DNA from: a virus
Taxonomy: Duplodnaviria; Heunggongvirae; Uroviricota; Caudoviricetes
Length of the DNA: 64,000 nucleotides
Strand: one strand, 5' to 3'
IMG/VR virus record: IMGVR_UViG_2645727901_000008
Shown here: in pieces, positions 2,697 to 56,762 of the stretch
Position numbering within the stretch: the stretch's first letter is position 1
Layout of the letters: each line of letters starts with the position of its first letter
The notes under the pieces: generated by a model
Seen by the model: only the letters and a program-made list of their open reading frames with translations
Told to the model about the DNA's origin: nothing
The model's database searches: none
Position numbers and translations under genes: made by a program

Positions 2697-3314
2697 TCAT
2701 TTTTGTCGGATCTTTTCCAGCATATTTAATTCATTATCACTTTCTGCTGCTGAGACGGTTGGCCTCACATTTCCGAAATATTTCCTGTGAGACTCATGAC
2801 TTATGTATTCACCGACAGTTTCATTCTTGAATATACGAATTTGACATATGCGAGATCCAACAATAAGTTCTACAGGGCTATTCCCATGATTAAATAACTC
2901 TAAAGATATACAGCCTCTGTACCCTGGTTGTATCATGGTATTTAATGAAAGACCAAGCCTTGTATAGCTGCTTCTGGACAATACATCAGCGTAGCAATCT
3001 GGTGGCAAACAAACATATTCTAATGTTGTTGCCAGTACCACTTGATTCGGGTAAACAATGAATCTATCCCCAAGATCTCTCCTTGTTTCCTGGAAAAATG
3101 TTCTGATTGGTTGATGAGTATCATTGTTTTTTGATGGAATTAACTCTATTGACGGCTTCCTTGTCATAATAGACACTAAAAAATCGTAACCAAGTCTAAG
3201 GTCTATGGTGAAGTTCCCAATTTGGTTTTTATTTAGAAGAGGTTCAATGAACAACGACTCAGGTTCTTCTGATTCATAATATTGCAGCAATTCAGCTTTG
3301 CTTAGGAGATTCAT
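2697..3314 (-). CDS. Dcd-type dCTP deaminase / dUTPase-fold protein (gene C of three-gene operon)
   Basis: Aligns by eye to E. coli Dcd across its conserved blocks: IDLRLG, SRSSYTRLGL (Ser/Arg motif), PGYRGCISLELFNHG (catalytic Glu context). Start ATG overlaps the stop of the upstream gene (ATGA); GGAG RBS. Confidence 0.85.
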   Translation of the reverse strand: MNLLSKAELLQYYESEEPESLFIEPLLNKNQIGNFTIDLRLGYDFLVSIMTRKPSIELIPSKNNDTHQPIRTFFQETRRDLGDRFIVYPNQVVLATTLEYVCLPPDCYADVLSRSSYTRLGLSLNTMIQPGYRGCISLELFNHGNSPVELIVGSRICQIRIFKNETVGEYISHESHRKYFGNVRPTVSAAESDNELNMLEKIRQK

Positions 3315-4384
3315 TGTGCACTCCATTTTTCAAGAATCATTACGTTTCGAATCGATTTTTCAACCAAATCATTTATAGTTTTTTCTATGGCTTCTTGTGA
3401 CAACCCAGACCATATACCCGTAGGTTTTTCCCATTCAGAGCATAAGTACTGCCAGCTGCTGTTAATAAAAGCATGCATTTCATTGTGGTCGCGAATAACA
3501 AAAGGACGCACATTATCAAAAGCTGATTTCACATCAAGCAAAGGTGTCGGCAATGTCAAACAAGGAGAAATAATCTGCCCACCATTATGTAAGGCTGATA
3601 TCACAGCATTGAACATGCCAACAACTGGATTTTCCACTTTGTTCAAAAAGTCGCTTACAATTTTAACTCTATCTTCTGTGGATGGGTGAGTATAGCTTGC
3701 AGGATGAGAGCCAGCTAATTTGTATAAGAAATCTACCCCACTTTTTCCAATAAATTGGGCACTAAATAGATCTGCAAAATATTCTCTGCAATGATTTATC
3801 CAAATAACATCAGGTAGATTACTCCATTCTGGTCCAGGAAGTGTGCCTTTGTCCTTGGAACGATAGTTAAGACAGGCAAGCTCAGAAATACCTTTGCTAA
3901 TATCAACGAAATGTCCCAATTCGTGATATAAAGGTATAGAGCATAATGGTCGTCTTCTGTACATTTCAGGTAATGAAATCTGAATTAATTCGACATCGAA
4001 TTTGACATTTAAAACTTCGTCAAATAAAGAATACAAATTCTTGTTTACAGACTTAAAATAAAACCCATGCATATCTGGAGATAGGGCTGTGGTTATAAGT
4101 GTTTTTTCACTTATCCATTTTTTACAGGCATCATTTAAGCAATAGACAATCTCGTAGGGAATTTTCTTTGTAGTACTGCCAGTGAAAAAATTAACTGCAT
4201 CGGTGATAAAAAAAGTACAATCCGCAATTATTTTATCAGCAACATTCACATGGTTTTCATAGAGCTTATCCACCGCTTCTTGTAGAACAGCAAGATATTC
4301 ATGCATGTCTTTAGAAAAATAGGGAGATTCTGATATCTCCCTTAGCTTATTTCGAACTAATGTAAGTTGTGTAAATGCAAGCAT
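3311..4384 (-). CDS. HExxH zinc metallopeptidase-like protein, ImmA/IrrE (M78)-like core (gene B)
   Basis: HELGH at residues 154-158 and downstream REYFADLFSAQF resembling the ImmA/IrrE E..AN.FA motif; N- and C-terminal regions have no recognisable domain. Start overlaps the upstream stop (TAATG). Confidence 0.8.
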   Translation of the reverse strand: MLAFTQLTLVRNKLREISESPYFSKDMHEYLAVLQEAVDKLYENHVNVADKIIADCTFFITDAVNFFTGSTTKKIPYEIVYCLNDACKKWISEKTLITTALSPDMHGFYFKSVNKNLYSLFDEVLNVKFDVELIQISLPEMYRRRPLCSIPLYHELGHFVDISKGISELACLNYRSKDKGTLPGPEWSNLPDVIWINHCREYFADLFSAQFIGKSGVDFLYKLAGSHPASYTHPSTEDRVKIVSDFLNKVENPVVGMFNAVISALHNGGQIISPCLTLPTPLLDVKSAFDNVRPFVIRDHNEMHAFINSSWQYLCSEWEKPTGIWSGLSQEAIEKTINDLVEKSIRNVMILEKWSAQ

Positions 4385-4689
4385 TAAATGTACTCTAATA
4401 CATTCCGGGCCATTACGGGTTCTAACATATCTTCGCTAGTTACTTTGGTTAGCACCTGGGCGAGCGCCTTAGTGTGGCGTATCTCTACCGCGAGCGAGAT
4501 GGACTCTCTGTGAGAAGGAATCTGTAATTGATCACCTTTATCTACACTTAAGTTTGAGGCTTCTCTGATCACCTCATAAACCCGTAACTTTAACTGCTGT
4601 GACACTTCTTGTTGAGATGCTATAAGCTGAAGTACAGTCTTGATCAACTTCAAAGAATCAGAAGCTTGCTGAGGAACCGCATAGAGCAT
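4384..4689 (-). CDS. small helical protein of unknown function (gene A, first in operon)
   Basis: 101 aa; strong AAGGAGG RBS 5 nt before the ATG; stop overlaps the start of gene B. Confidence 0.7.
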   Translation of the reverse strand: MLYAVPQQASDSLKLIKTVLQLIASQQEVSQQLKLRVYEVIREASNLSVDKGDQLQIPSHRESISLAVEIRHTKALAQVLTKVTSEDMLEPVMARNVLEYI

Positions 4690-5014: not shown

Positions 5015-5302
5015 TTAGCTCATTACTCGATAACGACGGGGAATGGAATTCTCCATCAGGCCACGAATTACTCCCGCCTCACGTAGTTCCTCTGTCTCCC
5101 AGTATCTGTTTGTCACCAGATCGAGGCTGGCTATGACCTTGTGCCGGTCATTCGGCATAGCTAATTTTTCTGCTATAACCATCAGTGAAAACTCTTCATC
5201 CAGTAGAATTTGATAGCAGTTTTTTGATAGTTCCACTTCCCTTATGAGACTGAAACGTCGCTGGATTGTGGCAGTAGAGTAAGTGAAATCTATTTTCTTC
5301 AT
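5015..5302 (-). CDS. hypothetical protein
   Basis: 95-aa ORF downstream of the Rha-like gene, same strand. Confidence 0.5.
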   Translation of the reverse strand: MKKIDFTYSTATIQRRFSLIREVELSKNCYQILLDEEFSLMVIAEKLAMPNDRHKVIASLDLVTNRYWETEELREAGVIRGLMENSIPRRYRVMS

Positions 5303-5361
5303 CGTGCGGAGAATCCGATTATTTAGCAGTTAAAGCCCCGGACAGGCCGGGGCAACAGTAA

Positions 5362-6288
5362 TTAACTAACAATCCAGTCCATAGCAACCATATCCTCTGG
5401 CGCTAAATCAATAGCATGGATTTTCCCATCCCGGATAGTGCGCCAGTGCTTCCTTGATCCGCCTTCGGGCCATACCCATACACCTTCAGACCATGAGGCG
5501 CGACGGCATACCGTTGCATATCCACTTCTGATCTTCTCTCTGGCGGTATGCAGTGACAGATTATCTTTTGGGATTTCCGGTAAAGGATGATGGATTGCCT
5601 GAAACAGCCCCATCTTGGGATGATACCAGCGTTTGTTGCGTGGTTCTGCCTCCGACATAACCTGCTTGAAGGCTTTCTGGAAGGGGGCCAGGGCCACAAT
5701 GGAGCGTCGCGCAAGCAAACCATCTGGAGTTAAAAACTCATGCGTATCGGTGGGAATCCGGAAAGCGTTAACCAGGTTGCGACATTTGGCTTCGGTCAGG
5801 CCACATTTCGCCGCCAGCTGGCGGTAGCCAATGTAGCCTTCCGGAATATTGCCTTTCTTTATTTGCTCGAGTGTTTCAGCGACCATCGATACTTGTGCTG
5901 ATACCTCGGCTACCTGGGCATTTACGGCGTTGATCCGGCGTTCATGCTCAAGATGCATTTGCGCCATTTCAGCCAGGATTTCGGCTTTTGATTTTAACTG
6001 TACCCGGGCATTCTCCAGTTCGCGCCAGCGGTCCACCAGCCGGGCGGTGAATTCGGGAGAGAGCTGCGCGACGACGACAATACTATCGCGCTTGCCTTGC
6101 TCGCCTTCGAAGACGTAATAGCTCGCCGGGCGGCCTGCGGTGGGCTTTTCCTCAATTTGAGGAAAAGATATTACGCCCCGTTCCGCCAGGTGTTCAATGG
6201 TGCGTTTAACGTTATCAGGGCGCTTACCTACCAGTTCCGCGATCTCAATGCTGGTCATTGTCGCTTTTTGAGAGATGGACAGATTCAT
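5362..6288 (-). CDS. Rha-family phage regulatory protein (antirepressor-like) fused in frame to a C-terminal DUF2829-like module
   Basis: N-terminal region matches the Rha-like protein at 43508..44215 (SIEIAELVGKR..DNVKRTIE, VFEGEQGKRDSI, YRIPTDTHEFLTP). The last ~70 aa match the separate 66-aa gene at 43311..43511 (CRR.SW..GVW.WP...DW). Confidence 0.8.
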   Translation of the reverse strand: MNLSISQKATMTSIEIAELVGKRPDNVKRTIEHLAERGVISFPQIEEKPTAGRPASYYVFEGEQGKRDSIVVVAQLSPEFTARLVDRWRELENARVQLKSKAEILAEMAQMHLEHERRINAVNAQVAEVSAQVSMVAETLEQIKKGNIPEGYIGYRQLAAKCGLTEAKCRNLVNAFRIPTDTHEFLTPDGLLARRSIVALAPFQKAFKQVMSEAEPRNKRWYHPKMGLFQAIHHPLPEIPKDNLSLHTAREKIRSGYATVCRRASWSEGVWVWPEGGSRKHWRTIRDGKIHAIDLAPEDMVAMDWIVS

Positions 6289-6503
6289 CAGTGCGCCTCC
6301 ACGCAGTTCATCGGCAGATTCCAGTAATTGAGGATCTCCATCGCATCAAGAGTGAAGCGAGCAGCAAAAATGCAGGGTTCTTCGGGAAGGTATGAGCGCG
6401 CCTCTGCTTCGGTAGCAGCCATGACGCAGATATACAGGTGTTTTTGGCAGGAATAGAAACGCCAGATAAATTCAGAATGAGTTGGGGTAGGGATAGTAGC
6501 CAT
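6288..6503 (-). CDS. small Icd-like protein upstream of the Rha-like gene
   Basis: 71 aa; paralog of 44215..44439 (shared EFIWRF.S.QKH and AATE.EARS); AAGGAGG RBS; stop overlaps Rha start. Confidence 0.6.
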   Translation of the reverse strand: MATIPTPTHSEFIWRFYSCQKHLYICVMAATEAEARSYLPEEPCIFAARFTLDAMEILNYWNLPMNCVEAH

Positions 6504-6700
6504 ATTGGCAGCCTCCTTTGACTAAGTTAAGGAGCTACCGCGTGAGGTTCCAATCTCAATGGCGGTAGCACTGACTGGGTTGGAACTACCGGCGTCAAAG
6601 GGAACCGGCCTGCCTTTCGGCAGCCCAGCCAGCACTACCATTGATCTCTGAGCTAAACGCTACGTATGGCTGTGCGATGGCATGACACAAAAAAAGACGC
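6504..6700 (-). ncRNA. candidate c4-like antisense/leader RNA region upstream of icd-like gene (copy 1)
   Basis: Minus-strand RNA contains CCCUUUGAC (about 6594-6602) complementary to GUCAAAGGAGG covering the icd-like SD (about 6512-6522); also a UAGCUCAG tRNA-like stretch. Confidence 0.3.
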
Positions 6701-6754
6701 TTTCGGCGTCTGTGTCGCCTTTGACATTATCCGGGGTTCCAATCCCGGCACCCG

Positions 6755-6777
6755 TTTTTCTAAGGTGCCGTAGAAAT
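6755..6777. promoter_or_regulatory. TTTCTA-N8-TAGAAA palindromic operator-like element upstream of immI-like copy 1
   Basis: cgTTTTTCTAAggtgccgTAGAAATAtacc; a related inverted arrangement sits upstream of copy 2 at about 44770-44800. Confidence 0.35.
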
Positions 6778-12358: not shown

Positions 12359-12658
12359 ATGAGTCAAGGTAACGGTGGTGGAGCTGCAAAGTGCAGAATC
12401 TCCACTTGTTTGATTAATGGCAGAAAAATAGAACCGTGCGCGGCGCTGGCACAATCTCTGGAGCAGGATGCTGAATACACGACGCGAAAAGGCCTGCTGA
12501 AATACAAAGTCTATAACCATGAATTAATTCATTCACAGGACCTGATCATGCTGCGGTCTGGTGAATTTTCTAAATCGCCTATTCGAGTTTCATTTTGCCC
12601 ATTCTGTGGTGAAAGTCTGAAAACGTGGGAAGCGGAGGCAACCAGTGAGCAAAATTAA
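12359..12658 (+). CDS. small Cys-containing protein, paralog A1 (CPFCGESLKTW family)
   Basis: Shares C-terminal FCPFCGESLKTW and central IEPCA with 14151..14414. Confidence 0.6.
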   Translation: MSQGNGGGAAKCRISTCLINGRKIEPCAALAQSLEQDAEYTTRKGLLKYKVYNHELIHSQDLIMLRSGEFSKSPIRVSFCPFCGESLKTWEAEATSEQN

Positions 12659-13103
12659 CTATCAAGAACTGCGCGAGGCGGCGGAACAGGCAACGCAAGA
12701 TGAATGGGTAGCATATATTTTGCCGGGTCATAACGGCATTTATCCTGCGCGCACGTCTGAAGGTAGGCATTGCGGATACTTTATTGACTGGCCTGGCATT
12801 GATGGACAAAGGAATGCTGGTGCTAATGCCCGTTATATCGCGGCTATCCCACCAAAAGTTGCACTGTCACTCCTAGGCGAAATTAAGCGCCTGGAGGACA
12901 AAAATATTGATGCCATGTGCCAAATTGCAGAGCTGGAGAGCAATCGCGCGGCGCTGGCGGCGGAGCATGGTATTCAGATTGCAATAAATGAACTGCTTGC
13001 TCTGGCCCCGCGTCTGGATAAACGAGCGATGGATGCACTCTCTGTGGCTGTGGAGCACCTGTGTAAACTGATTAAGAAGGAGGCAGTCAGTGAGCAAAAT
13101 TAA
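12645..13103 (+). CDS. Ea22-like early protein, paralog B1
   Basis: GTG start; N-terminus MSKINYQELREAAE shared with 13090..13770 and 14407..14961. Confidence 0.6.
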   Translation: MSKINYQELREAAEQATQDEWVAYILPGHNGIYPARTSEGRHCGYFIDWPGIDGQRNAGANARYIAAIPPKVALSLLGEIKRLEDKNIDAMCQIAELESNRAALAAEHGIQIAINELLALAPRLDKRAMDALSVAVEHLCKLIKKEAVSEQN

Positions 13104-14154: not shown

Positions 14155-14414
14155 GTGAATTAAAGTGTCGAATTAATGGCAATCAGATAGAACCGTGTGC
14201 GGTACTGGCAAAAGCACTCGAATATGGAAATCCAGCCTTTAAGAGTAAAGGCATATTTATCCCGGAACGCGTGAATATAAATACCGGCGAGCCAGGCTTA
14301 GACATTGCTCAAATTCACTCCGGCCAATATGTCGGTCGTGGTGTTGCCATGTGTTTTTGCCCGTTCTGTGGTGAAAGTCTGAAAACATGGAAAAAGGAGG
14401 CAACCAGTGAGTGA
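14151..14414 (+). CDS. small Cys-containing protein, paralog A2 (CPFCGESLKTW family)
   Basis: Start moved to GTG (VSELKCRINGN) with GGGAGGAG RBS; C-terminus matches 12359..12658. Confidence 0.6.
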   Translation: MSELKCRINGNQIEPCAVLAKALEYGNPAFKSKGIFIPERVNINTGEPGLDIAQIHSGQYVGRGVAMCFCPFCGESLKTWKKEATSE

Positions 14415-14961
14415 AGTTAACTATCAGGCACTGCGTGAGGTGGCAGAGGCCGCGAAGGGGGATACGACGTGGCAGAACCTACAGGCTTTTCATGCTGCGG
14501 CAACGCTGGAGGTTGTGCAGGCGTTGCTGGATGAAAACGAAAGACTGTGTCGCGATCTGATAGCTCGTAATGGTGAGATTGAAGGGCTTCGGGAGTGGGC
14601 AGAAGAACTGGAGGCACGGGAAGTGGCTTTGCCAGTAGCGTCATGCATTGTTGAAGATGGATGCATGTGTGTTGATGGGTTCAGTGAGTATGTAGGTCAC
14701 TCGCTACCTGATGGAATGCATGAGCTTTATGCTGCCCCACCAGCGTCGGTAGTGCCGGAAGGACTAGTTAAAGCAGTGCGTTTCTATGAACAGGTAAAGT
14801 GTGAGAATCCGCCAGTCGAAACCGGAGCATGGAAAGACGCTATTGACTGGGTGCTCAAAGAGGCTTGCCAGGCTGTAAACATTGGCATCAAAGGAGAGAG
14901 ATATGGCAACTTTAACAAAAAAAGAACAAGCATGGTTGAACGAATTACAGGACGTTCTTGA
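14407..14961 (+). CDS. Ea22-like early protein, paralog B3
   Basis: GTG start; N-terminus SEVNYQALREVAE. Confidence 0.6.
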   Translation: MSEVNYQALREVAEAAKGDTTWQNLQAFHAAATLEVVQALLDENERLCRDLIARNGEIEGLREWAEELEAREVALPVASCIVEDGCMCVDGFSEYVGHSLPDGMHELYAAPPASVVPEGLVKAVRFYEQVKCENPPVETGAWKDAIDWVLKEACQAVNIGIKGERYGNFNKKRTSMVERITGRS

Positions 14962-29508: not shown

Positions 29509-29584
29509 TGGTGGCCCCTACCGGACTTGAACCGGTGACCGTGCGATTATGAGTCGCCAGCTCTAACCACTGAGCTAAAGGGCC
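29509..29584 (-). tRNA. tRNA with CAU anticodon (Ile2/lysidine-type, or Met)
   Basis: 76 nt with encoded CCA; sequence is very close to E. coli tRNA-Ile2 (ileX) as recalled. Confidence 0.85.
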
Positions 29585-29594
29585 AATTAGTGTT

Positions 29595-29708
29595 TTATTT
29601 TCGACGCCTGAGATTCTTCGCGACTTGTTCTACGCCGTATACGATCACAAGTAGAAACAGCAAAAACCATCCAGGGTTCTTATCGATATACGTCCAAAAA
29701 TCCATCAT
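29595..29708 (-). CDS. micro membrane protein (37 aa)
   Basis: MMDFWTYIDKNPGWFLLFLLVIVYGVEQVAKNLRRRK; start overlaps upstream stop (ATGA); below track cutoff. Confidence 0.3.
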   Translation of the reverse strand: MMDFWTYIDKNPGWFLLFLLVIVYGVEQVAKNLRRRK

Positions 29709-29869
29709 GAGTTCCTGAACGCACCTTCAATAATCGGCAATAGCAATACCACAGCTACTGAAACTAATGCCCCATCAGCCAACACCGACATCACTTTGCT
29801 GGTGAAATCCACCAGTACGGACAAAACGAGAAAGCCAATGGCGCCCGCAATACGCGCCTTGCCAATCAT
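29705..29869 (-). CDS. small membrane protein (54 aa)
   Basis: MIGKARIAGAIGFLVLSVLVDF...; start overlaps the TerB-like stop (TAATG). Confidence 0.35.
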   Translation of the reverse strand: MIGKARIAGAIGFLVLSVLVDFTSKVMSVLADGALVSVAVVLLLPIIEGAFRNS

Positions 29870-30324
29870 TACAGATAATCTTCCACACGAAGGCCAAGAC
29901 GGCGACCAACCTCTTCCAGAACCTTATGCTCCGCAGGTTCGATTTCACCATCTGCTTCAGCGATCGTGAGCATGTTCACGAAGACTTCTTCCGCTTCTTT
30001 GGGATCGTTTTTGATATCTTCAATTTCGCGGAGGATATTCATGCGACCAACACGGAAACCAGCTTCCAGTTGCTCAGTAAAACGGGTGATTGTTGCGGTA
30101 ATTTCGTTGCCAAAATGACTTAAGCGAGGATTAGAGCGGACAAGCTGATCAAGTTTCGCTGTTTCTTCCTTTTCGATTTCACCATCTGCGGCAGACACCA
30201 GCAAACAGCCACCGATGATGGCCTCCATCAGATCGCGATTCTCAACCCTTTTCAGCTCTACTTTTGCTGAAGCGACTTTCTTACCGAAAAATTTACCGAA
30301 CATTGGTTTTCCCTCAATAAACAT
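29869..30324 (-). CDS. TerB-like protein (tellurite-resistance TerB fold)
   Basis: Two AADGEIE/AEADGEIE repeats typical of TerB-like domains. Confidence 0.65.
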   Translation of the reverse strand: MFIEGKPMFGKFFGKKVASAKVELKRVENRDLMEAIIGGCLLVSAADGEIEKEETAKLDQLVRSNPRLSHFGNEITATITRFTEQLEAGFRVGRMNILREIEDIKNDPKEAEEVFVNMLTIAEADGEIEPAEHKVLEEVGRRLGLRVEDYL

Positions 30325-30570
30325 GACGTATTTATTAGGTTGCGGTGCCTGGTGCCTCCAGGTGACGTTAACCAGTTAACAATTAACGCCGGGATTTTTG
30401 TCTTCACAATTAAGGAGGATTGTTTTAACTGTTCCGCGTGCGCTTAGCCGCATTCACCGCAATGGTAAGAGCACTTGGCTGGCTGGGCGGCGATGACGCC
30501 TGTACGCATTTGGTGAACCGGTTCTGCTTCCGGCATTCGCTTAATTAGCCAAATACTCTTAACGTTGCAC

Positions 30571-30657
30571 TGGCGGAGAGTAATGGAATCGAACCATCAT
30601 CGCTTGCGCAATGGGACGGTTTTCAAGACCGCTTGAGCACCATGCTCCCTACTCTCC
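30571..30657 (-). tRNA. class II tRNA, anticodon UGA (Ser-like), atypical short D-arm
   Basis: Perfect 7-bp acceptor stem plus CCA; anticodon loop CUUGAAA; long variable arm; T-loop TTCGATT. Confidence 0.55.
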
Positions 30658-30794
30658 CGTTATTGTGGCGACCGGTGCTGATCTCCGGCTTGCGGTTATT
30701 TCAGACTCTCACGGGCGTTTAATTGCCCCGCCGAACAGCTCTTTTCCGCAATAGCTGCAATGTCTTTCGCGCATCAGCCTGCGCATTCACCACA

Positions 30795-30878
30795 ATGTTG
30801 AGAACACTGGTTGTCACGCTGCAACGCAACATTTATTCGTAGATTGGGATATGACCCCGTTACGCCAGTGTTCTCAAC
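30795..30878. repeat. 13-bp perfect inverted repeat pair (TTGAGAACACTGG / CCAGTGTTCTCAA) with about 58-nt spacer
   Basis: Lies between tRNA genes in noncoding sequence. Confidence 0.4.
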
Positions 30879-31028
30879 GTTGTAGTGCCGGTTACGGTTC
30901 CGGCCAGGCCTCTTCCTCAACGGGTTGTTCTCCATACGGACTACCGTTTATTGGTCGTTCCTGCGGTTTATGTTGTGAAGCCAGATGCTTATCTTCTGGT
31001 TGCTTCAAAGAGCTGCACTTCATCACAA

Positions 31029-31100
31029 CGGTAAGGGTACTTCGTAGGGATTCGAACCCTCTGCCAAGCACGGCGATCTCCGACGTCGCAAAATACCCTT
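31029..31100 (-). other. tRNA-like structured element or tRNA remnant
   Basis: Contains a GGTTCGAATCC T-arm-like segment enclosed by a perfect 10-bp inverted repeat (GGTAAGGGTA / TACCCTTACC); no canonical D-arm. Confidence 0.25.
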
Positions 31101-31111
31101 ACCTGTTGCGT

Positions 31112-31187
31112 TGGTGCCGATTAACGGGATCGAACCGCTGACCATTCGCTTACAAAGCGACTGCTCTACCAACTGAGCTAAACCGGC
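31112..31187 (-). tRNA. tRNA-Thr (anticodon UGU)
   Basis: 76 nt; canonical cloverleaf; anticodon loop TTTGTAA; T-loop GGTTCGATCC; CCA encoded. Confidence 0.85.
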
Positions 31188-31191
31188 AATT

Positions 31192-31278
31192 TGGTGGGGA
31201 GTGATGGAGTCGAACCACCCGAGTCGCAATGACAGTAGATTTACAGTCTACCCCGCTACCCCTACGGACTAACTCCCC
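31192..31278 (-). tRNA. tRNA-Tyr (anticodon GUA), class II
   Basis: 87 nt; acceptor GGGGAGT/ACTCCCC; anticodon loop CTGTAAA; long variable arm. Confidence 0.8.
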
Positions 31279-31283
31279 TAAAG

Positions 31284-31360
31284 TGGCGATGGTGGGTGGA
31301 TTCGAACCACCGACCGACAGCTTAGAAGGCTGCTGCTCTATCCTACTGAGCTACACCATC
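31284..31360 (-). tRNA. tRNA-Arg (anticodon UCU)
   Basis: 77 nt; anticodon loop CTTCTAA; T-loop GGTTCGAATCC; CCA encoded. Confidence 0.8.
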
Positions 31361-35801: not shown

Positions 35802-38800
35802 TTAGGCCGCATCGGCGATTATTTTACGCAATTCATCTACCGAGTAACGCGTAGATACCATCCATGCAGGACGGTCAAAGTTCACATCAGCAACCGGGTT
35901 TGCTTCAAAATTCCAGAAACGCCCGCCAATCTTCTTAATCGCGTCTTTGGCGTTCCGTATTGTCGAGGAACCAGGTTGGTCGGCAATGAGATAAACCGCA
36001 CCGACGTCCTCGCTGACACTCCACCAGCGCCCGCGAACACGCGCCTTAGCGCGAATCGGCTTATCATTAACCACAATGATATAGTCATCATTCGCCGCTT
36101 CATCAGCTCTGGCTTCAGCCACTGCCGCCTGCTCTTCTCTTTTGCTTTCAGCCTGTTCAAGCCTTTCCGCGATCTCTGATTCGGTGGCCCCGCCGTTTTT
36201 CAGCGATACATAGTCTTGCCACGTTGCTGATTTGAGCGCATCCGGCAACTCATTCACATAGTCACCGTCTTTCAACTCACGGGCGCGGCGGGTAGCCATT
36301 TCTACCAGGCGATTAACAGAAACAGCATCAGCAAAATCGTCCTTACTAATGTGTTTTTCATCAAATGCATTGATGACAGCCCCCACCTTAATCCACTGCG
36401 CTGCTGGCGAATCCAGAGGATTATCGGCCTGAACAATGGCTAATTTCGCTCCATCGACACCATTATTAGCCAGCTGCTCCAATGCCGACCAGCCATCGGC
36501 ATCGCTGAGTGATTTATATTGCTCAAACAATGCATCGCGCCAGGCCACCAGCGCAGCTCGTGTTTTCTCAATTTTCGCCGTAATTTTCGCGGCCTTCACC
36601 TGATTAAACATCCGTTCAATGTCATCAGTGTTGCTAAAGGCTTTCATCCTGCCCTGGAATAAACGGTATGCCACCACGGTCTTCCAGAAAGATTCCAGCC
36701 CTTCTCCGGACGGTTTACGGAACAGGCTAAGAATATCTTCAGAAGTAACTTTATTAAGTGAGCGACCGGACAAACCACGCCCTGCCATCCAGTTTTCAAA
36801 CTCCTGGGAAACATCATCCATCGTGGCCTGTGACCCCCATGCCTGCATTCCCTGGATGTAATCATATCCATACAATGCCTGGAGGAATCCCTCGCCGTCC
36901 ACGACATTCAGCGGGTTATCACTGGCTTGTATTTTTGCCACTTCACGCTTCAGCGCCTCATCGTTGCCATCAGGGTAAATCCACCGCTCAGGCGCTATAT
37001 CCGATGCTCGCCCGATTTTTTGACCTATTACGCCATCATAAGCCGATGACAGTGCAATCTGACCATCATCGGTGCGATAAGCCCAGTATTTAATAGCTGA
37101 ACCACCGCCCCATACTCTACTAGGCTTCCCGGCAGTGACATTCATTACCCCATTGCGAATAGCATCATAGAACTGATCGCGCGTAAGTGTTGTTGATAGC
37201 TGGTGGCATTGAACACCACGTGCAGCTGTTTCACGCGATTCTGCAACTCCCTCTTCAAAGGTTACCGATTCAATTATCAGGTTAAAGGGCAAAAATAATG
37301 CCGTCCCCGGAGAACGAGAGTAACGACTAGCCACATCCAGCCAGGATATGCGGCACGTACACCCGCCCCTTTCCGCATCAATGGCGGTAACACGAACAAT
37401 TGCTGTCGTATTGTGATTCTCATCGATGATCGCGCGATAATGGCTGCCCTTGTGCAACAAGATATTTTTCTCAGTGCGTACATACTCCTGTGGGTTCTGC
37501 AATACATCGGCATCAAGCTCCAGAACCCCGGCTTTAATCGCACGTTCCAGATCACCACGAGAACGTTTCATAACGGTGTCAGCGTCTTTAGCTCTGGTGA
37601 TCGCAAAGCGTAGCTCCCGCACACGTTTTCTGTAGTCTCGCAACTGTTCCAGAACATATTTCTGCCCGTTCCTGTTCGTCCCCGCTTTAATCAGGTCGTC
37701 AAGATTGCGCTGGTAATGCTCTACCTGCTCCATCGCGCTTTTCAGTTCTGTCTCCATCATGCCGATATCTTTCCCGGCAGCATTCGCCGCTTTCAGGTAG
37801 TTATCGAGAGCATTATTGGCTTCGCGTAGGGCTTTCAGTTTCAGACGTTCTTCACGCTCTTGCGCCTGACGACTCATGATTGCACGGCGTTCTTCCGGAT
37901 TTGCCGCCAGCATAATGGCGCGTTCATCTGCGTCATCCGCATCACCATTGGCGATCTCTGACATGTCGGAGGTCATCACCATATTGATCCAGTCCTTCTT
38001 ACGTTTCAGCGTATCCAGACGGAAGTCATCAAATGTGCCTTTGCCACAATAGTAGTGAACATTGACCTTTTCTTGTGGTGAGCCTACCCGAGCGCCGCGC
38101 CCATTACGTTGGTCGATACTGGCAGGAGTCCAGGGTAGTGTCAGATGGTGGATATCGGTTGTCCCGATGTGCAAGTTAATACCTACTTCAGCCTTCTTGT
38201 TACAGATTATGATGCGCGTGCGACCTTCGTTATAGTCGGCGGCAATACCTTCCATGCCCTCAAGGCCAGCATCATTTTTAGCTGAGAGATAATCCTCATA
38301 TTGGGCAAGTTTGCTGTAGTAGGTTTCCCATGCACCTTCTTTGTATTCACCGTTTTTATTTGGCGTAGGTTCAGTCGGCTTATTCACCTTCTTCAGCTTG
38401 ACGCCGCCAGCCTGGCTAACTGTCGTCGCATTGATAATGCCTATCTCCTGCTCCGGCATTTGCAGTGCACTGGCAATAATACGGCGCAGCTTCTGGTGCT
38501 GGGCTTTTTCATCAATGAAGACGATTTGTTTACCGTTCTTCAGACCTTCACGAAGGTTTTCGATCAGCGCGGCATACTTCGGCGGGATGGGGTGTGATAC
38601 CTGCTGCATATCAATACCGGCAGCCGCAATGGCCTTCAGTATTTCAGCTTCCAGTTCAATGCCAGCACGTATTTCAACATGCGACGGATGTTCGCTAAAG
38701 GTGGTCTTCACTACCTTGCTGGCACGCGTACTGACCAGCCCACCAGCGCCATCTTCTTCGGCCTCGTCTACATCATCTGCCACTTTACCGCCAGCTACTT

Positions 38801-41800
38801 TTGGCAGGGCATCAGCAATAGCTTTTACCTTGTCTGCAAGCTCAACGGGGAACTGGAATGTAATCGCACTGGCATACAGATCAGGATCTATAGCAACCTT
38901 ATCCATGTCGCGGATGATGGAGAAGATGAAATCATCCGGTTTTTCGTTTGTGATATGCCCGTTTTCATCGACCGTCAGCGCATCTTTACTACTTAACTCC
39001 TGTGCACGCTTACGAAGTTCTTCGTAAATGGCCTCTTGCTCTCCTGTCATCGGGATCTGCAAGGTATTCTCGACAATATCAGGGATTTTTACCGTCGCCC
39101 CGACGTCCGCAGCAGTCTTCAGAGTAGTCCAGCGATGGAAAATACCACGCAGACCATCCAGGTTCTGGAAGCCCACCAGTCCCTGCTTCTCTTCCACCTC
39201 ACCGGAAATTTTCTGAACCTGAACTGTGGCTGTTTTACCGAACACGCGAACGAAATCATCCGGCGTAACAATACCCATGCGCATCCACTCTTCCTGCGGA
39301 ATGACAGTAGACAGCATGTTGAAAGCATCAATCGGGCTGTTCACCAGCGGTGTTGCCGTCAGCATAACCACACCACGCCCGTTGTTGCGTTTCATCATGT
39401 ACGCAGCTTTTACAGCCATGTCGCGGGCCATTTTGGATACTGCCGGGTTAGGCAAATATGCCAGTTGCCCCGCTTCGCGCCCGGCGCTAAAGGAGTTGCG
39501 GTAGTTATGCCCTTCGTCGGCAATTACGCTATCGAAGTTCATATCCTCAAAGTACGGGATATTCTGCTTCTTCGTTGTACCGGTATTTGCGGCCTGGTCC
39601 TTAATCTTGTTCTTCTTCTGCGCGTCACGGTGTTTGCCAGATGCCAGGTCAAGACGCCCCATTTCCACAGCATTAAAGACCGCTTGCTGTGAGTTTTCCT
39701 CAATGGTTTCTTCTCGTAGCGGGATAGACGCGAATTGCTCTTTTGTCATGATGACCGTTCGCCAATTTGACGACGGGATCATGTTCATGCGCTGAACGAT
39801 AACGGCGCTGGCGGACTCTTTCACAACATTTCTGGTAAGAGCCTGCCCGTTACTGTCGAGGCGTGGTTCGCCATTTTCATCAAGCACCGGCGCGGTCAGA
39901 ATATTTCCGCTGTCATCACGAACTTCATCCAAACCGATAAACATCATATTGGCGAAGGCATCAGAACTGTAGAAACTCTGTGCCTCGTGATACCAGTTCT
40001 GATAAACCGCCTTCGGAACAACAATACACGTGCGTTTAGTGCGACCTGTTTCGAAGTTATACGCCTCAAGCGCAAGCGCGGTCGTGGTTTTACCCAGCCC
40101 GGTGCCAAATCCCATGATGCCGCGCCCATCTTCTGATAAGCGACGAACTTCTTCATTCTGATAAGTCAGAGGAATGCGCTTCCCACTAATCCCCTCCAGG
40201 CCAAGCGGTGCGTCAGAATGCGTAAACGGGATGAAGCCATTAAATGCGTCGTTATAGTCGCGGGCTATCTGATCAGCCTGCGGGTGAGTGCGTAACCAGT
40301 CGTTGAAGCTAATTTCCAGTTGAGCAATCTTATCCAGGTACTCGTTAGCGTTCTGCCCACGCGGTTTAATGCCGTTCAGGTAGTTTTCTAACTGGTTCAG
40401 GAAGCCGTCTTTATTGTTGGCCTTCTTGAACTCATTCCCGTTTTTGCCGTTTACGGTTCGTAGTTGATAGCCAGTAAATACCCCGTCCTTACCTTCGTAA
40501 TCGTCCGGAGATACCAGAATGCCGTCCTCAACCTTAAGGTCGGGTTCTGTATACTTAAACTCGTCATAGCCCTGCTCTGCCAGGAACTCTTTTATCAAGC
40601 GGCGATCCAGCCAGCGGGCGTTCAGATTAACGGTGACTTTATTTAGTGGCGTGAAAATGCGTTTCTCTTCGATTTTCGCCAACTGACGCTCAAAGTTCGC
40701 TTTCTGCTCACCTGTTGACGCATCACGCCAGCCCACCAGCAATGCTGTTTTGGTTGCAATATCGCCGCTGGTGGCGCGGTCCATCGGCAGCAGGCAGCCA
40801 TACCCATCAATAGCGATATCATCAAATTTCGCCAGGTATTCCAGAGCAGCATCGTCGTCTCCTGGCAGTTCGCCAGCAAACGCCTCACGAAAATCGTCCA
40901 GTGTGATTGGATTAAGTGCCACGTCACTGAAAAGGTGGGTTACAACTTGTTCCGGGCGTGTAAAGTCAATACCGGCAGCACCATCCGTTACATCAAGTCG
41001 TCCAGCAAGGAGGTCAGAAGCAGAGCCGTCCTGTTTCACGTTGCCAGTGAAAGTCATCCAGTTTTTAGCGCCAGCTTCAGCAATCCCATTCAGCTTAATC
41101 GCGTGCGGCGGACCATACTTCGCAATTTCGGCTTCCGCCAGGCGCGCGGCATCAGCAAGTACATCATCAACATTTTCCCCCAGATTACGCTTATCAAGCG
41201 CCTTGTTGATCAACTGCCCTATCAGTGCGCCGCGCATAACGCGTTCTCTGTCTTTTTCTCTCTGCTTGCCAGCAAAGCGAATCATTGCCGCTACTTCATC
41301 ACTGATAACCGATGGATAGTCGGACGCGATCGCCGATATCTGGTCCCATGACAACGCCAGAATGCCATTTGTTGACTGAAACGCGATCTGCAGATCACCA
41401 AACGTCGTAACACCATATCGATTTACATCAAGCGCGGAGGATTTGGTTGTCGCGTCCTTGACCCATTTCAGACCATCAAACTCATGCCAGATGCCGCCTA
41501 CAAGGCGTTTATCGCCCACTTTCGCGCCCTGCCATGCCTGAGTAGTTACGCCAAGCAAATCCCAATTAATGCGGCTTTCAAAGCGGCGCGATAGAGCGGT
41601 TTTCATCGACTCATTGGATACACGACCGTCCTTTTTCACCACCAGGGTATTGCGGAAGCTGGTACGCTCCATATCGCCGTAAACAAATCGCTTCCCTTCG
41701 GTTGTAAACCATTTTCCTTTGAGGAAGGTATCCCAAAGGACGTTTGCCGATTTGAGCGTTGCATCATCCGTGTCGGGGATCATCTCCAGGAAGGTTTCCG

Positions 41801-42641
41801 GGTGTTTACGCAATACCCATACGTCCACCACGGTATCTGTACCGGATTCGCTGAACGTACCAGAAGGCATACGATGTGCGCCCAAAAATTCCGCTTTACG
41901 GCTGACTTTATCGCGCAATTTTTTGTATTTCGTACCATCGGTCATGCCATTCGGCACCACCAATACAATTAGTCCACCAGGTTTAACCTTGTCGATCGTG
42001 CGCAACACAAAGTAATTGCCAACGTTCTTCTCGTTTGCATATGCCGGATCAAGCCCGGCAACGCCGGAACGCCCTTCACCAAACGGTACGTTACCAACAG
42101 CGTGGTCATACATTGCGTCTTTCGCCGCCAGCGCCTCAAACGCCCCGATATTCACATCGTCTTCCGGGTGCAAAAGCTGGTTTATTCGACCGGAAATCGG
42201 AGACAGTTCGGCGCTGGTCATTATCATGCCCTGCCGTTTTGTCTCCTGGAAAATACCTGTGCCCGCTGATGGTTCCAGTACGTGCCCACCATCAATACCG
42301 TAGTCAGCAAACAGATCCCATATACCTTCAGCCATAAACTGTGGCGTGTAGTATTCGTATTGGCTGCCCTCACCATCTGTCAGGCCGCCTTCACCGGTAT
42401 ACCCGGCAAGAATCTGACGTTGTTCGTCAGTTAATTTCGCCCCATCGAAGCCGGGCGGAAGGGAATTAAGAAGATTTACTGCGGCATTGTTTGCTGCCCG
42501 GCGTGTTTTCTGAATACTGACGCCATCGGCTTTCCTGACGCCAAAGGTCGCAACAGCACGTAATTTATGCAACCGACTAACAATTTCAATCAGTTCGCCT
42601 AAGCTGGAGGCTTCACTGATTGAATGAAGTAGTTTGTCCAA
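35802..42641 (-). CDS. darB: giant DarB-like protein: N-terminal SAM-dependent DNA methyltransferase domain plus SF2 (DExH) helicase domain
   Basis: 2279 aa; MTase motif I VLEPSAGTGIF and NVPFG; helicase Walker A GFGTGLGKTT, motif II VIADEGHNYRN, motif VI RNGRGARVG; size and architecture match P1 DarB. Confidence 0.8.
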   Translation of the reverse strand: MDKLLHSISEASSLGELIEIVSRLHKLRAVATFGVRKADGVSIQKTRRAANNAAVNLLNSLPPGFDGAKLTDEQRQILAGYTGEGGLTDGEGSQYEYYTPQFMAEGIWDLFADYGIDGGHVLEPSAGTGIFQETKRQGMIMTSAELSPISGRINQLLHPEDDVNIGAFEALAAKDAMYDHAVGNVPFGEGRSGVAGLDPAYANEKNVGNYFVLRTIDKVKPGGLIVLVVPNGMTDGTKYKKLRDKVSRKAEFLGAHRMPSGTFSESGTDTVVDVWVLRKHPETFLEMIPDTDDATLKSANVLWDTFLKGKWFTTEGKRFVYGDMERTSFRNTLVVKKDGRVSNESMKTALSRRFESRINWDLLGVTTQAWQGAKVGDKRLVGGIWHEFDGLKWVKDATTKSSALDVNRYGVTTFGDLQIAFQSTNGILALSWDQISAIASDYPSVISDEVAAMIRFAGKQREKDRERVMRGALIGQLINKALDKRNLGENVDDVLADAARLAEAEIAKYGPPHAIKLNGIAEAGAKNWMTFTGNVKQDGSASDLLAGRLDVTDGAAGIDFTRPEQVVTHLFSDVALNPITLDDFREAFAGELPGDDDAALEYLAKFDDIAIDGYGCLLPMDRATSGDIATKTALLVGWRDASTGEQKANFERQLAKIEEKRIFTPLNKVTVNLNARWLDRRLIKEFLAEQGYDEFKYTEPDLKVEDGILVSPDDYEGKDGVFTGYQLRTVNGKNGNEFKKANNKDGFLNQLENYLNGIKPRGQNANEYLDKIAQLEISFNDWLRTHPQADQIARDYNDAFNGFIPFTHSDAPLGLEGISGKRIPLTYQNEEVRRLSEDGRGIMGFGTGLGKTTTALALEAYNFETGRTKRTCIVVPKAVYQNWYHEAQSFYSSDAFANMMFIGLDEVRDDSGNILTAPVLDENGEPRLDSNGQALTRNVVKESASAVIVQRMNMIPSSNWRTVIMTKEQFASIPLREETIEENSQQAVFNAVEMGRLDLASGKHRDAQKKNKIKDQAANTGTTKKQNIPYFEDMNFDSVIADEGHNYRNSFSAGREAGQLAYLPNPAVSKMARDMAVKAAYMMKRNNGRGVVMLTATPLVNSPIDAFNMLSTVIPQEEWMRMGIVTPDDFVRVFGKTATVQVQKISGEVEEKQGLVGFQNLDGLRGIFHRWTTLKTAADVGATVKIPDIVENTLQIPMTGEQEAIYEELRKRAQELSSKDALTVDENGHITNEKPDDFIFSIIRDMDKVAIDPDLYASAITFQFPVELADKVKAIADALPKVAGGKVADDVDEAEEDGAGGLVSTRASKVVKTTFSEHPSHVEIRAGIELEAEILKAIAAAGIDMQQVSHPIPPKYAALIENLREGLKNGKQIVFIDEKAQHQKLRRIIASALQMPEQEIGIINATTVSQAGGVKLKKVNKPTEPTPNKNGEYKEGAWETYYSKLAQYEDYLSAKNDAGLEGMEGIAADYNEGRTRIIICNKKAEVGINLHIGTTDIHHLTLPWTPASIDQRNGRGARVGSPQEKVNVHYYCGKGTFDDFRLDTLKRKKDWINMVMTSDMSEIANGDADDADERAIMLAANPEERRAIMSRQAQEREERLKLKALREANNALDNYLKAANAAGKDIGMMETELKSAMEQVEHYQRNLDDLIKAGTNRNGQKYVLEQLRDYRKRVRELRFAITRAKDADTVMKRSRGDLERAIKAGVLELDADVLQNPQEYVRTEKNILLHKGSHYRAIIDENHNTTAIVRVTAIDAERGGCTCRISWLDVASRYSRSPGTALFLPFNLIIESVTFEEGVAESRETAARGVQCHQLSTTLTRDQFYDAIRNGVMNVTAGKPSRVWGGGSAIKYWAYRTDDGQIALSSAYDGVIGQKIGRASDIAPERWIYPDGNDEALKREVAKIQASDNPLNVVDGEGFLQALYGYDYIQGMQAWGSQATMDDVSQEFENWMAGRGLSGRSLNKVTSEDILSLFRKPSGEGLESFWKTVVAYRLFQGRMKAFSNTDDIERMFNQVKAAKITAKIEKTRAALVAWRDALFEQYKSLSDADGWSALEQLANNGVDGAKLAIVQADNPLDSPAAQWIKVGAVINAFDEKHISKDDFADAVSVNRLVEMATRRARELKDGDYVNELPDALKSATWQDYVSLKNGGATESEIAERLEQAESKREEQAAVAEARADEAANDDYIIVVNDKPIRAKARVRGRWWSVSEDVGAVYLIADQPGSSTIRNAKDAIKKIGGRFWNFEANPVADVNFDRPAWMVSTRYSVDELRKIIADAA

Positions 42642-43281: not shown

Positions 43282-43305
43282 AAGCCCCGGCCAGGCCGGG
43301 GCATC
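43282..43305 (-). terminator. rho-independent terminator
   Basis: GCCCCGGCC-loop-GGCCGGGGC followed on the minus strand by TTTTTT. Confidence 0.5.
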
Positions 43306-43310: not shown

Positions 43311-43511
43311 TCAATTCACGATCCAATCATTACCGACTATATCAGCCGTCGATAAATCAACTTCCCGGATCTGGAGTCCATTAATACAAAACCATCCGGT
43401 AGTAGAGTAATTATCAGGCCAGGCCCATACACCAACACTCCATGCTTTACGGCGGCACACTTCAGCCTGTCCTTCCCTGATTTTTTTTACCGCCTGCATG
43501 ATGTCCATCAC
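43311..43511 (-). CDS. DUF2829-like small protein
   Basis: 66 aa; start overlaps the Rha stop (ATGA); CRRKAWSVGVWAWP...GNDWIV. Confidence 0.6.
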   Translation of the reverse strand: MMDIMQAVKKIREGQAEVCRRKAWSVGVWAWPDNYSTTGWFCINGLQIREVDLSTADIVGNDWIVN

Positions 43512-44215
43512 TCACCTCCCCAACCGATCACCTGGAATTGCCCCATTTTGGGGTGATACCAGCGTTTTCCTCGGTGTTCAGCCTCCGACATCATCCGGTT
43601 AAAAGCATTCATGAAGGGAGATAAGGCCACGATGGAACGACGCGACAATACCCCCTCTGGAGTTAAAAACTCATGTGTATCGGTGGGGATCCGGTAAGCG
43701 TTAACCAGGTTGCGACATTTGGCTTCGGTCAGGCCGCATTTTGCCGCCAGCTGGCGGTAGCCAATGTAACCTTCCGGCATGTTGCCCTTCTTGATTTGCT
43801 CGACGGTTTCTACCACCTGGCTAACCTTTGACTCAACAACATGAAGCCGCTTTTGCTGCTGAACTGCATTTGCAGCCATTGCGGCGATCATCTCTATTTC
43901 GGTCAACGGCTGGCGTGCTTGTTCTTCCAGTTCGCGCCAGCGGTCCACCAGCCGGGCGGTGAATTCGGGAGAGAGCTGCGCGACGACGATAATGCTATCG
44001 CGCTTGCCTTGCTCGCCTTCGAAGACGTAAGCCTCAACACTACGTCGTAGTCCTAAGTTATTGATTTTTTCGAAAACCTCAATTTGAGGACGAACAATAA
44101 CGCCACCTTTGTCTAATGTCTCAATAGTGCGTTTCACATTGTCATGACGTTTTCCCACCAGCTCCGCGATCTCAATGCTGGTCATTGATGGCTTTTCGAG
44201 AATGCAGATATCCAT
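43508..44215 (-). CDS. Rha-family phage regulatory protein (antirepressor-like), copy 2
   Basis: 235 aa; shares segments of 90-98% nucleotide identity with 5362..6288. Confidence 0.8.
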   Translation of the reverse strand: MDICILEKPSMTSIEIAELVGKRHDNVKRTIETLDKGGVIVRPQIEVFEKINNLGLRRSVEAYVFEGEQGKRDSIIVVAQLSPEFTARLVDRWRELEEQARQPLTEIEMIAAMAANAVQQQKRLHVVESKVSQVVETVEQIKKGNMPEGYIGYRQLAAKCGLTEAKCRNLVNAYRIPTDTHEFLTPEGVLSRRSIVALSPFMNAFNRMMSEAEHRGKRWYHPKMGQFQVIGWGGE

Positions 44216-44439
44216 CAGTGAGCCTCCGCAATGCCGGGATTGGTAATATTGCGATACCAGGGATTGGTGTTTGGTTGTGGGGAAGTGGAGAAACGACCAG
44301 TGAGAACGCCATACTGATCAGGGATCAGAGAACGGGCTTCTTTTTCAGTTGCGGCAATTGCGAAGTGATCGCAGTGTTTTTGCAGGGAGTGAAAACGCCA
44401 GATGAATTCTGGACGTGAGCAAGGATTGGCATTAACCAT
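44215..44439 (-). CDS. small Icd-like protein, copy 2
   Basis: 74 aa; paralog of 6288..6503; stop overlaps Rha start. Confidence 0.6.
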   Translation of the reverse strand: MVNANPCSRPEFIWRFHSLQKHCDHFAIAATEKEARSLIPDQYGVLTGRFSTSPQPNTNPWYRNITNPGIAEAH

Positions 44440-44570
44440 AGTTACGGCCTCACTAACAGGTTTAACAACCTGCTACCCGCTGCTAAACAGGTGGCAGGAC
44501 GTGACGGGGTTAGCAGACTGGCGTTAGTGAAACCAGCAGGCCGAAGCCTCCCCATCACGCCCCACCATAA
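44440..44570 (-). ncRNA. candidate c4-like antisense/leader RNA region (copy 2)
   Basis: Minus-strand RNA has UUCACUAAC (about 44523-44531) complementary to GUUAGUGAGG spanning the icd-like SD (about 44448-44457), and CUGCUAACC pairing with GUUUAGCAG. Confidence 0.3.
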
Positions 44571-44785
44571 TTTGGGCGTAACGCGGTTTTACGGACACAA
44601 AAATACCGCAATATCGGATATCTGCGGTTGTCCGCACTAACATTCAGGCTGCTAAACCCGGTCGCAGAATTTGCTACGACGACATGAATATAAGCCTGAA
44701 AACATGGAAGATCAACTAAAAATTTCAGCAATAGATGACTTCAGTCGATGATGCAGATCATACATTCCGATTTAGAAACGGCAAA

Positions 44786-55649: not shown

Positions 55650-55668
55650 ACCTTGGTTTAAGAGAACT
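55641..55668. other. cix/gix-type inversion crossover site (left)
   Basis: caatcctAAACCTTGGTTTaagagaa imperfect palindrome at the outer edge of the left inverted repeat. Confidence 0.6.
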
Positions 55669-56761: not shown

Positions 56762-56762
56762 G

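Follow-up and report, generated by a model that had tools for sequence, protein, structure and literature searches.

The 64,000-nucleotide (nt) stretch of DNA analyzed here over its whole length (hereafter, the window; IMG/VR record IMGVR_UViG_2645727901_000008) is a phage D6-like, P1-type plasmid prophage that carries two immI-type immunity cassettes, each encoding an antirepressor (Ant) and a small module of 65 amino acids (aa). In cassette 1, the module is fused in frame to the C-terminus of the antirepressor (copy 1), and in cassette 2, it is encoded by a separate gene that overlaps the end of ant (copy 2). We conclude that this difference is almost certainly a natural, fixed fusion or fission within immI cassettes, and structure prediction indicates that the module very probably adopts the Tad2 (DUF2829) fold.

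The fused gene (5362..6288; this and all other cassette features described below lie on the minus strand) is a single uninterrupted open reading frame (ORF) of 308 aa plus stop, in agreement with the initial annotation, which had described the equivalent module as joined in frame to a Rha-like protein in copy 1 and had flagged the span 5362-5570, that is, the copy 1 stop codon, the module and part of the linker. The product matches the phrog_63 profile ‘anti-repressor Ant’ through to the profile end (E 1.9e-62). It consists of a Rha-type winged-helix N-domain (aa 11-93; 6010..6258), which scores 29.6 bits with Pfam Phage_pRha (PF09669), 0.3 under the cut-off of 29.9, and 24.7 bits with HTH_24; a coiled coil and conserved C-domain that complete the antirepressor body (aa 98-232; 5593..5997; phrog_6610), with a long helix at residues 78-144 in a low-confidence model of the full fusion; a Pro-rich linker, HHPLPEIPKDN, delimited by the junction alignment (aa 233-243; 5560..5592); and the module itself (aa 244-308; 5365..5559), which matches phrog_7385 with an E value of 2.8e-17. 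The linker stands where copy 2 has a stop codon, a Shine-Dalgarno (SD) sequence and a start codon, and on reading of the sequence none of the three is present in it.

In cassette 2, the antirepressor body is a 235-aa protein ending in GGE and a stop (43508..44215), which scores 36.8 bits with Phage_pRha (cut-off 29.9) and matches phrog_63 (E 4.9e-48) over profile positions 127-358 only. The designation ‘Rha-like’ is thus supported by the score of copy 2 and, just under the cut-off, by that of copy 1; a 313-aa fused allele from a relative (P0004) reaches 36.9 bits. The TGA stop of the copy 2 ant gene (43510-43508) shares its A with an ATG (43508-43506), forming the sequence TGATG, so that the overlap between the Rha-like stop and the start of a small gene is as previously described. 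From this ATG, the module gene (43311..43508) encodes 65 aa, and a GTG at 43511 would give the 66-aa ORF (43311..43511). The ATG is the likely start because an SD sequence, GGAGG (43515..43519), sits within the end of ant 6 nt upstream, and it is also the start annotated in D6. By its sequence, the copy 2 junction has all the appearance of a classic stop-start coupling arrangement.

The two forms might have been linked by readthrough or frameshifting, or the fusion might have resulted from a sequencing error at the copy 1 junction, and the initial annotation had raised both possibilities. Alignment of the two junctions at the nucleotide level shows that they differ not by one base but by a net 16 nt (a 17-nt block and a 1-nt gap), with otherwise unrelated sequence. 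The identity between the two copies collapses approximately 20 nt before the copy 2 stop and is regained in the hairpin that follows the module, GCCCCGGCCTG[T/G]CCGGGGC, which is a canonical terminator in copy 2. There is no slippery heptamer at the copy 2 junction, and the module frame is closed there by a TGA immediately before the module start, so that no frameshift could yield a fused copy 2 product.

Comparison of homologous elements points in the same direction. In IMG/VR, all 21 intact loci of the copy 2 type are split and have the same overlap, and no split pair was found among the 13 loci of the copy 1 type, six of which are intact fusions (loci L024-28 and L036); the others have a premature stop (L029), frameshifts in the body (L030-34) or a deletion that keeps the module (L035). 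Three further intact fusions are present in phage D6 and in the plasmids L048 and L049, and the intact fusions in D6 and relatives are 85-98% identical to that of the window. Fused proteins of 301-314 aa with the module at the C-terminus form more than 110 distinct clusters at 90% identity, from Escherichia coli and Salmonella; some of these clusters are found on 100-467 contigs, under the NCBI name ‘Rha family transcriptional regulator’. The module is carried, mostly twice, by 123 plasmids in PLSDB. The copy on plasmid pSa1423-160k (L047), with 10 in-frame stops, was treated as degraded or of low quality and left out. Among 10 intact fused alleles, the ratio of non-synonymous to synonymous polymorphism (pN/pS) is 0.07 for body residues 98-232, 0.17 for the linker and 0.13 for the module; the fused module is under purifying selection.

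These observations bear out the view of the fusion as a natural variant. The population data, which show the same fusion not only in D6 but across hundreds of independent assemblies and more than 110 clusters, together with the net 16-nt difference at the junctions and the unrelated linker sequence, exclude a sequencing error or a recent loss of the stop codon in copy 1, and the closed frame of copy 2, the lack of a slippery site, and the copy 1 linker devoid of an SD sequence or internal start exclude programmed frameshifting or readthrough. That the fusion is a sequencing or assembly artefact, or a product of recoding that interconverts the two forms, is accordingly hardly credible, even if indels of 1-2 nt in the ant body of some relatives could be taken to favor an artefact.

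Such lesions of the ant body occur in approximately half of the sampled loci of the copy 1 type, with the module frame intact in all of them. They include a 2-nt deletion at about nt 460 in L030, an additional C in a C-run at about nt 601 in L031, L033 and L034, and, as judged by tblastn, the same frame break as in the latter three in L032. The lesions may reflect genuine pseudogenisation of one antirepressor of the pair or, alternatively, homopolymer sequencing errors.

When the fusion is compared with the window by tblastn, copy 2 is recovered in two frames, with 67% identity over aa 1-232 and 44% over aa 239-308, and the copy 1 module alone is 44-45% identical to the copy 2 protein. Given that the paralogy of the two cassettes extends from the C4 RNA as far as the terminator hairpin, the resemblance between the modules is not due to chance. 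A global alignment of the two operons is a mosaic in which stretches of 45-55% nt identity are interrupted by patches of 92-97%, such as those that pair 6123-6033 with 44035-43945 and 5883-5763 with 43814-43696. The fusion or fission is old, both states being fixed across the D6-like population and subject to purifying selection, and the paralogous cassettes still exchange body segments by recombination.

The identity of the module was settled by fold searches, given that searches by sequence gave weak matches only. With the Pfam Tad2-like profile (PF11195, gathering threshold 25 bits), the copy 2 protein scores 14.9 bits (E 0.04) and the copy 1 module gives no match. The module matches PHROG 7385 strongly, a family annotated as of unknown function. 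No match to the module was found in NCBIfam or in PADLOC, the models of which cover defence rather than anti-defence; word-indexed protein searches retrieved close relatives only; a scan of genome contigs yielded no real relative; and scans of viral and metagenome contigs for the type represented by the proteins P0005 and P0006 (see below) found none. An exhaustive profile search against 1.84 billion representatives returned seven proteins at E<=1e-3, so that the sequence family of the module is tiny. At the sequence level, the link to Tad2 is transitive only, via P0008, a protein found with the module profile (E 1.9e-4 library-wide) that scores 37.4 bits with Pfam Tad2-like. In a sequence search of the PDB, a profile of three sequences found no Tad2, and a profile of seven sequences ranked HgmTad2 at the top, with an E value of only 0.09.

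The AlphaFold2 model of the module, built from a 10-sequence alignment, has a predicted local distance difference test (pLDDT) score of 94.2 and consists of one N-terminal helix, an antiparallel sheet and a short C-terminal helix. In a Foldseek search of the PDB with this model, the first 18 matches are all Tad2 structures (SPO1 Tad2 and ModTad2; template modeling (TM) score 0.68-0.77, probability 0.95-1.0), after which the scores drop sharply. In BFVD, the top matches are likewise all Tad2-like or DUF2829 proteins, including versions of 65-72 aa (best TM 0.84) and multi-domain proteins of 147-270 aa. The earlier description of the module as ‘DUF2829-like’ therefore stands at the level of the fold but not at that of the sequence, which stays under the Pfam threshold.

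As modeled, the module is a stripped-down Tad2 that comprises helix alpha1 and the antiparallel sheet and lacks the Tad2 insertion. Known Tad2 proteins (SPO1 Tad2, HgmTad2, also known as AcrIIA7, and ModTad2; PF11195) consist of 89-104 aa, compared with the 65 aa of the module, in which approximately eight residues (PDNYSTTG) take the place of the beta2-beta3 insertion. In SPO1 Tad2, this insertion forms the dimerisation helix (residues 36-59), and in HgmTad2, it contributes the cyclic dinucleotide (CDN) pocket (32-72) (bioRxiv 10.1101/2023.05.01.538930; 10.1101/2023.11.15.567273). The contacts with glycocyclic ADP-ribose (gcADPR) in HgmTad2 are W21, N22, G23, W87, S90, T92 and D93, and the conserved contact residues of SPO1 Tad2 are W25, N26, W73 and D79 (bioRxiv 10.1101/2023.11.15.567273, 10.1101/2023.05.01.538930). 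When these contacts are mapped by an alignment of hidden Markov models, that is, by sequence and not by structural superposition, three of the seven are kept in copy 2 (W21, S90 and D93) and two in copy 1 (W21 and D93). Throughout the module family, the positions equivalent to W21 and D93 do not vary, and the changes at the other positions are N22 to S (P in relatives), deletion of G23, W87 to V or I, S90 to S or A, and T92 to A or E. The canonical gcADPR site thus appears to be largely lost. A further difference from the Tad2 sponges is that the module is embedded in, or fused to, a lysis-lysogeny regulator.

Both copies of the module are parts of complete P1-type immI cassettes, which comprise an a1/b1 leader, the C4 antisense RNA, the a2/b2 targets, icd, ant, the module and a hairpin. 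Cassette 1 starts with an isrK-type leader RNA element (6690..6768; Rfam RF01394, 62.7 bits against a gathering score of 50), within which the terminator scan detected a terminator-like hairpin (6711-6695). The leader is followed by the C4 RNA (6558..6645; Rfam RF01695, 77.1 bits against 45, a full-length match to positions 1-87), the a2/b2 targets (6504..6557), recognized as words complementary to the C4 loops that are repeated upstream of C4, and an icd-like gene of 71 aa (6288..6503; NCBIfam phage_ICD_like, 49.5 bits against 25), the stop of which overlaps the ant start by 1 nt (at 6288). After the fused gene, there is a hairpin with a weak T tract, GCCCCGGCCTGTCCGGGGC (5335..5353), identified by reading of the sequence and not called by the terminator scan, that is identical in 18 of 19 bases to the terminator stem-loop of copy 2. 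Cassette 2 has the same organization, with an a1/b1 target element (44641..44693; Rfam RF03163, c4-a1b1 leader, 51.5 bits against 46.7), a C4 RNA (44487..44572; RF01695, 70 bits), an icd-like gene of 74 aa (44215..44439; phage_ICD_like, 40 bits) that also overlaps the ant start by 1 nt (at 44215), and, after the module, an intrinsic terminator called by the scan, GCCCCGGCCTGGCCGGGGC followed by TTTTTT (43284..43302).

The a and b words upstream and downstream of C4 are TTGGAAC and GTCAAAGG(AGG) in cassette 1, and TTAGCAG and GTTAGTGA(GG) in cassette 2. As judged from complementarity, the downstream b2 copy overlaps the SD sequence of icd in both cassettes; in cassette 1, b2 is GTCAAAGG and the SD sequence is AAGGAGG. 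Because the C4 recognition words differ between the cassettes (window 6504-6557 and 44440-44486), the two should be independently regulated, which would amount to heteroimmune immI specificities in one plasmid. The role of Ant as an inactivator of the C1 repressor is putatively assigned, by position and annotation (phrog_63 and the D6 record) only.

Further cassette variants were found in relatives. In the plasmid NZ_OY754396.1 (L049, 48260-49473), a third cassette adjoins the capsid gene and consists of icd followed by a 332-aa protein in which an ORF6N N-domain replaces Rha, and the remainder, which starts at the coiled coil and includes the module, has 94% identity to the window fusion; this is a swap of the N-terminal domain with the module kept. 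At the same capsid-adjacent site, two distant D6-like elements with approximately 73% nt identity to D6 around the capsid gene, the Raoultella plasmid L042 (3752-4291) and L043 (3746-4207), have the a1b1 element and C4 followed by the module alone, as a 96-aa protein (P0005) and a 68-aa protein (P0006), respectively; neither icd nor ant was found by tblastn in the part of each element that was examined. In both, the C4 b2 word overlaps the ribosome-binding site of the module. P0005 and P0006 share only 38% identity, compared with approximately 77% for the flanking DNA, and a stretch that can be aligned with the copy 1 linker makes up the N-terminal extension of P0005. In the deletion variant L035, a truncated icd (59 aa) is followed after 2 nt by an 83-aa ORF in which the final Ant residues, the linker and the module are joined.

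The cassette variants seen, namely Rha::module, ORF6N::module, Rha + module, truncated icd + module, and the module alone, have a single protein element in common, the module. Because the module follows C4 alone in L042 and L043 and persists with the truncated icd in L035, it is probably an autonomous C4-gated effector. Apart from these cassettes, ORFs of 81-83 aa with the same makeup as that of L035 are located downstream of a Cre-like integrase in L038-L041 and L051-L055. They recur on many contigs with the annotation ‘transcriptional regulator’, with an 80-aa fragment of a C1 repressor also present in L051-L054 and an IS26-type transposase in L038 and L039; in L038, the sole locus of this kind scanned with Rfam, no C4 RNA was detected.

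The cistrons of icd, ant and the module overlap one after another downstream of the C4 target, and their joint gating by C4 can therefore be expected, as in P1 immI and the analogous Gifsy-1 isrK-orf45-anrP operon: as long as C4 blocks the first ribosome-binding site, none of the three would be made, and their synthesis would await fresh infection or escape from immunity. The fusion in cassette 1 and the coupling in cassette 2 would both deliver Ant and the module together, at a ratio of about 1:1. We tentatively propose, in the knowledge that this could well prove wrong, that the module is a binding domain in the antirepression output of the cassette, having the repressor or Ant as its target, serving as a small antirepressor or an Ant subunit, and re-using a sponge fold whose canonical gcADPR site is largely lost. 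This proposal draws on the fusion or coupling of the module to the antirepressor body in three cassette types, on the module being the sole C4-gated protein in L042 and L043, C4 gating being the general logic by which antirepressors are controlled, on the loss of most of the canonical Tad2 ligand site, and on the expectation that a C4-gated product made 1:1 with Ant is unlikely to be abundant enough for a sponge. Small proteins that inactivate repressors also have precedent: the annotation of P1 Coi reads ‘C1 repressor inactivator’, and small antirepressor proteins are described in two reports (PMC10432266; bioRxiv 10.1101/2025.11.23.689978). If the module is indeed a component of the antirepressor, a ‘sponge’ fold has been recruited into lysis-lysogeny control. 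Taken as a whole, the explanation that combines a fixed fusion or fission with a role of the module in antirepression has, in our estimate, a little under an even chance of being correct.

Several considerations weigh against the antirepression role. Every characterized Tad2-fold protein is a small-molecule sponge rather than a protein binder, and the invariant equivalents of W21 and D93 could mean that a pocket survives. Any link of the module to Ant or C1 is a putative one, and the single-sequence AlphaFold2 model of the full fusion (pLDDT 52) is of too low a quality for docking between module and body to be judged. Overlapping stop and start codons are common in phage operons whatever the function, and phage proteins of the Bro, KilA and Rha types shuffle domains promiscuously, which makes fusion weak evidence of joint function. 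A separate ant gene is possible elsewhere on L042 and L043, elements that were seen in part, and which of the D6 proteins is the antirepressor is a positional call.

The strongest competing explanation, unlikely in our judgment but to be taken seriously, is that the module is a minimal Tad2 working on its own in anti-defence, as a sponge that sequesters a host immune second messenger, such as gcADPR, His-ADPR, a cyclic nucleotide or another signal. The immI slot would then provide a burst of expression after entry or induction, and the fusion to Ant would be a tolerated accident of operon compaction. The clear Tad2 fold and the existence of Tad2-like proteins of 65-72 aa and of multi-domain ones in other phages fit this explanation, as do the standalone module behind C4 in L042 and L043 and the persistence of the 81-83-aa remnants without Ant. 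The module also diverges faster than its flanks (38% compared with approximately 77% for P0005 and P0006; 44% between the window copies), as arms-race genes do, its W21 and D93 equivalents are invariant, and Tad2 homologues are known to bind varied ligands (hisADPR in the case of ModTad2; cGG). Conversely, only two or three of the seven gcADPR contacts are kept, the insertion with the dimerisation helix and the CDN pocket is missing, the sequences stay under the Pfam threshold, and PADLOC gave no match, its library consisting of defence and not anti-defence models. Furthermore, a sponge has to be abundant, and a C4-gated product made 1:1 with an antirepressor would be expected to be scarce. 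Should the module be a sponge after all, it would represent the smallest Tad2 class and would indicate that sponges can work as fusion domains, and the C4-gated operon would be an expression slot for anti-defence.

A sensor function appears improbable. Under this scenario, a host nucleotide signal bound by the Tad2-fold domain would switch the attached or co-made antirepressor on or off, such that the plasmid prophage would read the anti-phage alarm and either stay lysogenic or escape, and an anti-defence fold would have been repurposed as the input domain of a lysis-lysogeny switch. A ligand-binding fold joined to a lysis-lysogeny regulator in two N-domain contexts, the purifying selection on the fused state and the invariant W21 and D93 equivalents are all compatible with sensing; set against this are the purely inferential nature of the idea, the occurrence of the module without any Ant to regulate, and the change of most canonical pocket residues. 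Homology of the module to P1 Coi or P1 C8 was ruled out, with hhalign probabilities of 0.2% and 0.1%, respectively.

The cassettes and the module can be compared with several known systems. The cassettes resemble the immI operon of P1 and P7 (c4-icd-ant1/ant2) in the C4 RNA with its a/b target repeats, the icd-like first cistron and the antirepressor coupled to icd. In P1, a single ORF gives rise to two Ant polypeptides. The Ant of the D6 type is a modular protein of the Rha/Roi/ORF6N class and not P1 Ant, and, unlike the P1 and P7 immI region, D6-like elements have two or three cassettes, which differ in C4 specificity. No Tad2-fold cistron is known in P1 immI. The module is similar in size class and in its proposed repressor-neutralizing logic to P1 Coi (69 aa) and to the small antirepressors of polylysogeny and arbitrium modules; it has no sequence relationship with these proteins, and the analogy is a functional one only, as proposed here. 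In the Gifsy-1 isrK-orf45-anrP operon, a short ORF is coupled to an antirepressor-like gene by a stop/start overlap, and a natural fused orf45::anrP variant is present in Shigella dysenteriae (PMC4825925). The window shares with Gifsy-1 the isrK-type leader (6690-6768), translational coupling and natural fused variants. The two differ in the position of the variable junction, which lies between the upstream ORF and the antirepressor in Gifsy-1 and between the antirepressor and the downstream module in the window, and no Tad2-fold cistron is described in the Gifsy-1 operon (PMC4825925).

Both cassette regions of the window are 94% identical at the nt level to Escherichia phage D6 (MF356679), in which the layout is the same, with gp83 (icd) followed by the fused gp82, and gp19 (icd) followed by the split pair gp18 and gp17. 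D6 gp82, a 313-aa ‘putative anti-repressor’, has the fused form of copy 1, and the window allele of 308 aa differs from it in length by an N-domain segment that is five residues shorter in the window; gp18 (235 aa) and gp17 (65 aa, ‘hypothetical’) correspond to copy 2. The fused and split arrangement is thus already present in GenBank, in gp82 as against gp18 and gp17 and in hundreds of ‘Rha family’ entries; in the D6 record, the C-terminus of gp82 bears no domain note and gp17 is only ‘hypothetical’. A second c4-icd region of D6-like plasmids has been mentioned (PMC6799933). We found no published account of the fused or split module or of its Tad2 fold in a literature search that did not cover the D6 genome paper (Gilcrease & Casjens 2018). 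Three points are undescribed in the literature found: that gp17 and the 65-aa C-terminus of the fused proteins are minimal Tad2-fold domains, as predicted here; that this domain is the invariant payload of C4-gated cassettes; and that it exists in fused, coupled and standalone form. In several hundred ‘Rha family transcriptional regulator’ entries, the annotation of the C-terminal 65 aa can be corrected to a Tad2-fold domain, as can that of the ‘hypothetical’ gp17 family, with the same qualification. The fusion or fission as such is an ordinary evolutionary event; the phage-plasmid family in which it occurs is a common one, and plasmid prophages of the D6-like type are frequent in E. coli and Salmonella.

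Several other features of the window were noted. Just upstream of both cassette 2 and a peptidoglycan-hydrolase-like gene (42793-43278) is a 2279-aa ORF (35802-42641, minus strand), the counterpart of D6 gp15 and P1 DarB (‘defense against restriction’ in D6). Downstream of cassette 1 and of a pmgF-like gene (5015-5302), there are two overlapping ORFs of 101 aa and 357 aa (3311-4689, minus strand), the longer of which contains an HELGH motif; the nt match to D6 ends at approximately 5080, so this pair is not common to D6, and it has no match in Pfam or PADLOC and may be an accessory ‘moron’ pair. A Cin-like serine invertase of 186 aa (55089-55649) adjoins C-terminal segments of tail-fibre genes (region 55089-60239), which are flanked by 198-bp inverted repeats with 98% identity (55643-55840 and 58833-59030); with a second inverted pair in the same region (56707-57049 and 57566-57909), this arrangement looks like an invertible host-range switch of the P1 C-segment type. 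Four tRNA genes are clustered at 29512-31360 on the minus strand (Rfam matches at 29512-29584, 31115-31187, 31195-31278 and 31287-31360), and a 90-bp direct repeat with 87% identity is present at 12593-12682 and 14355-14444.

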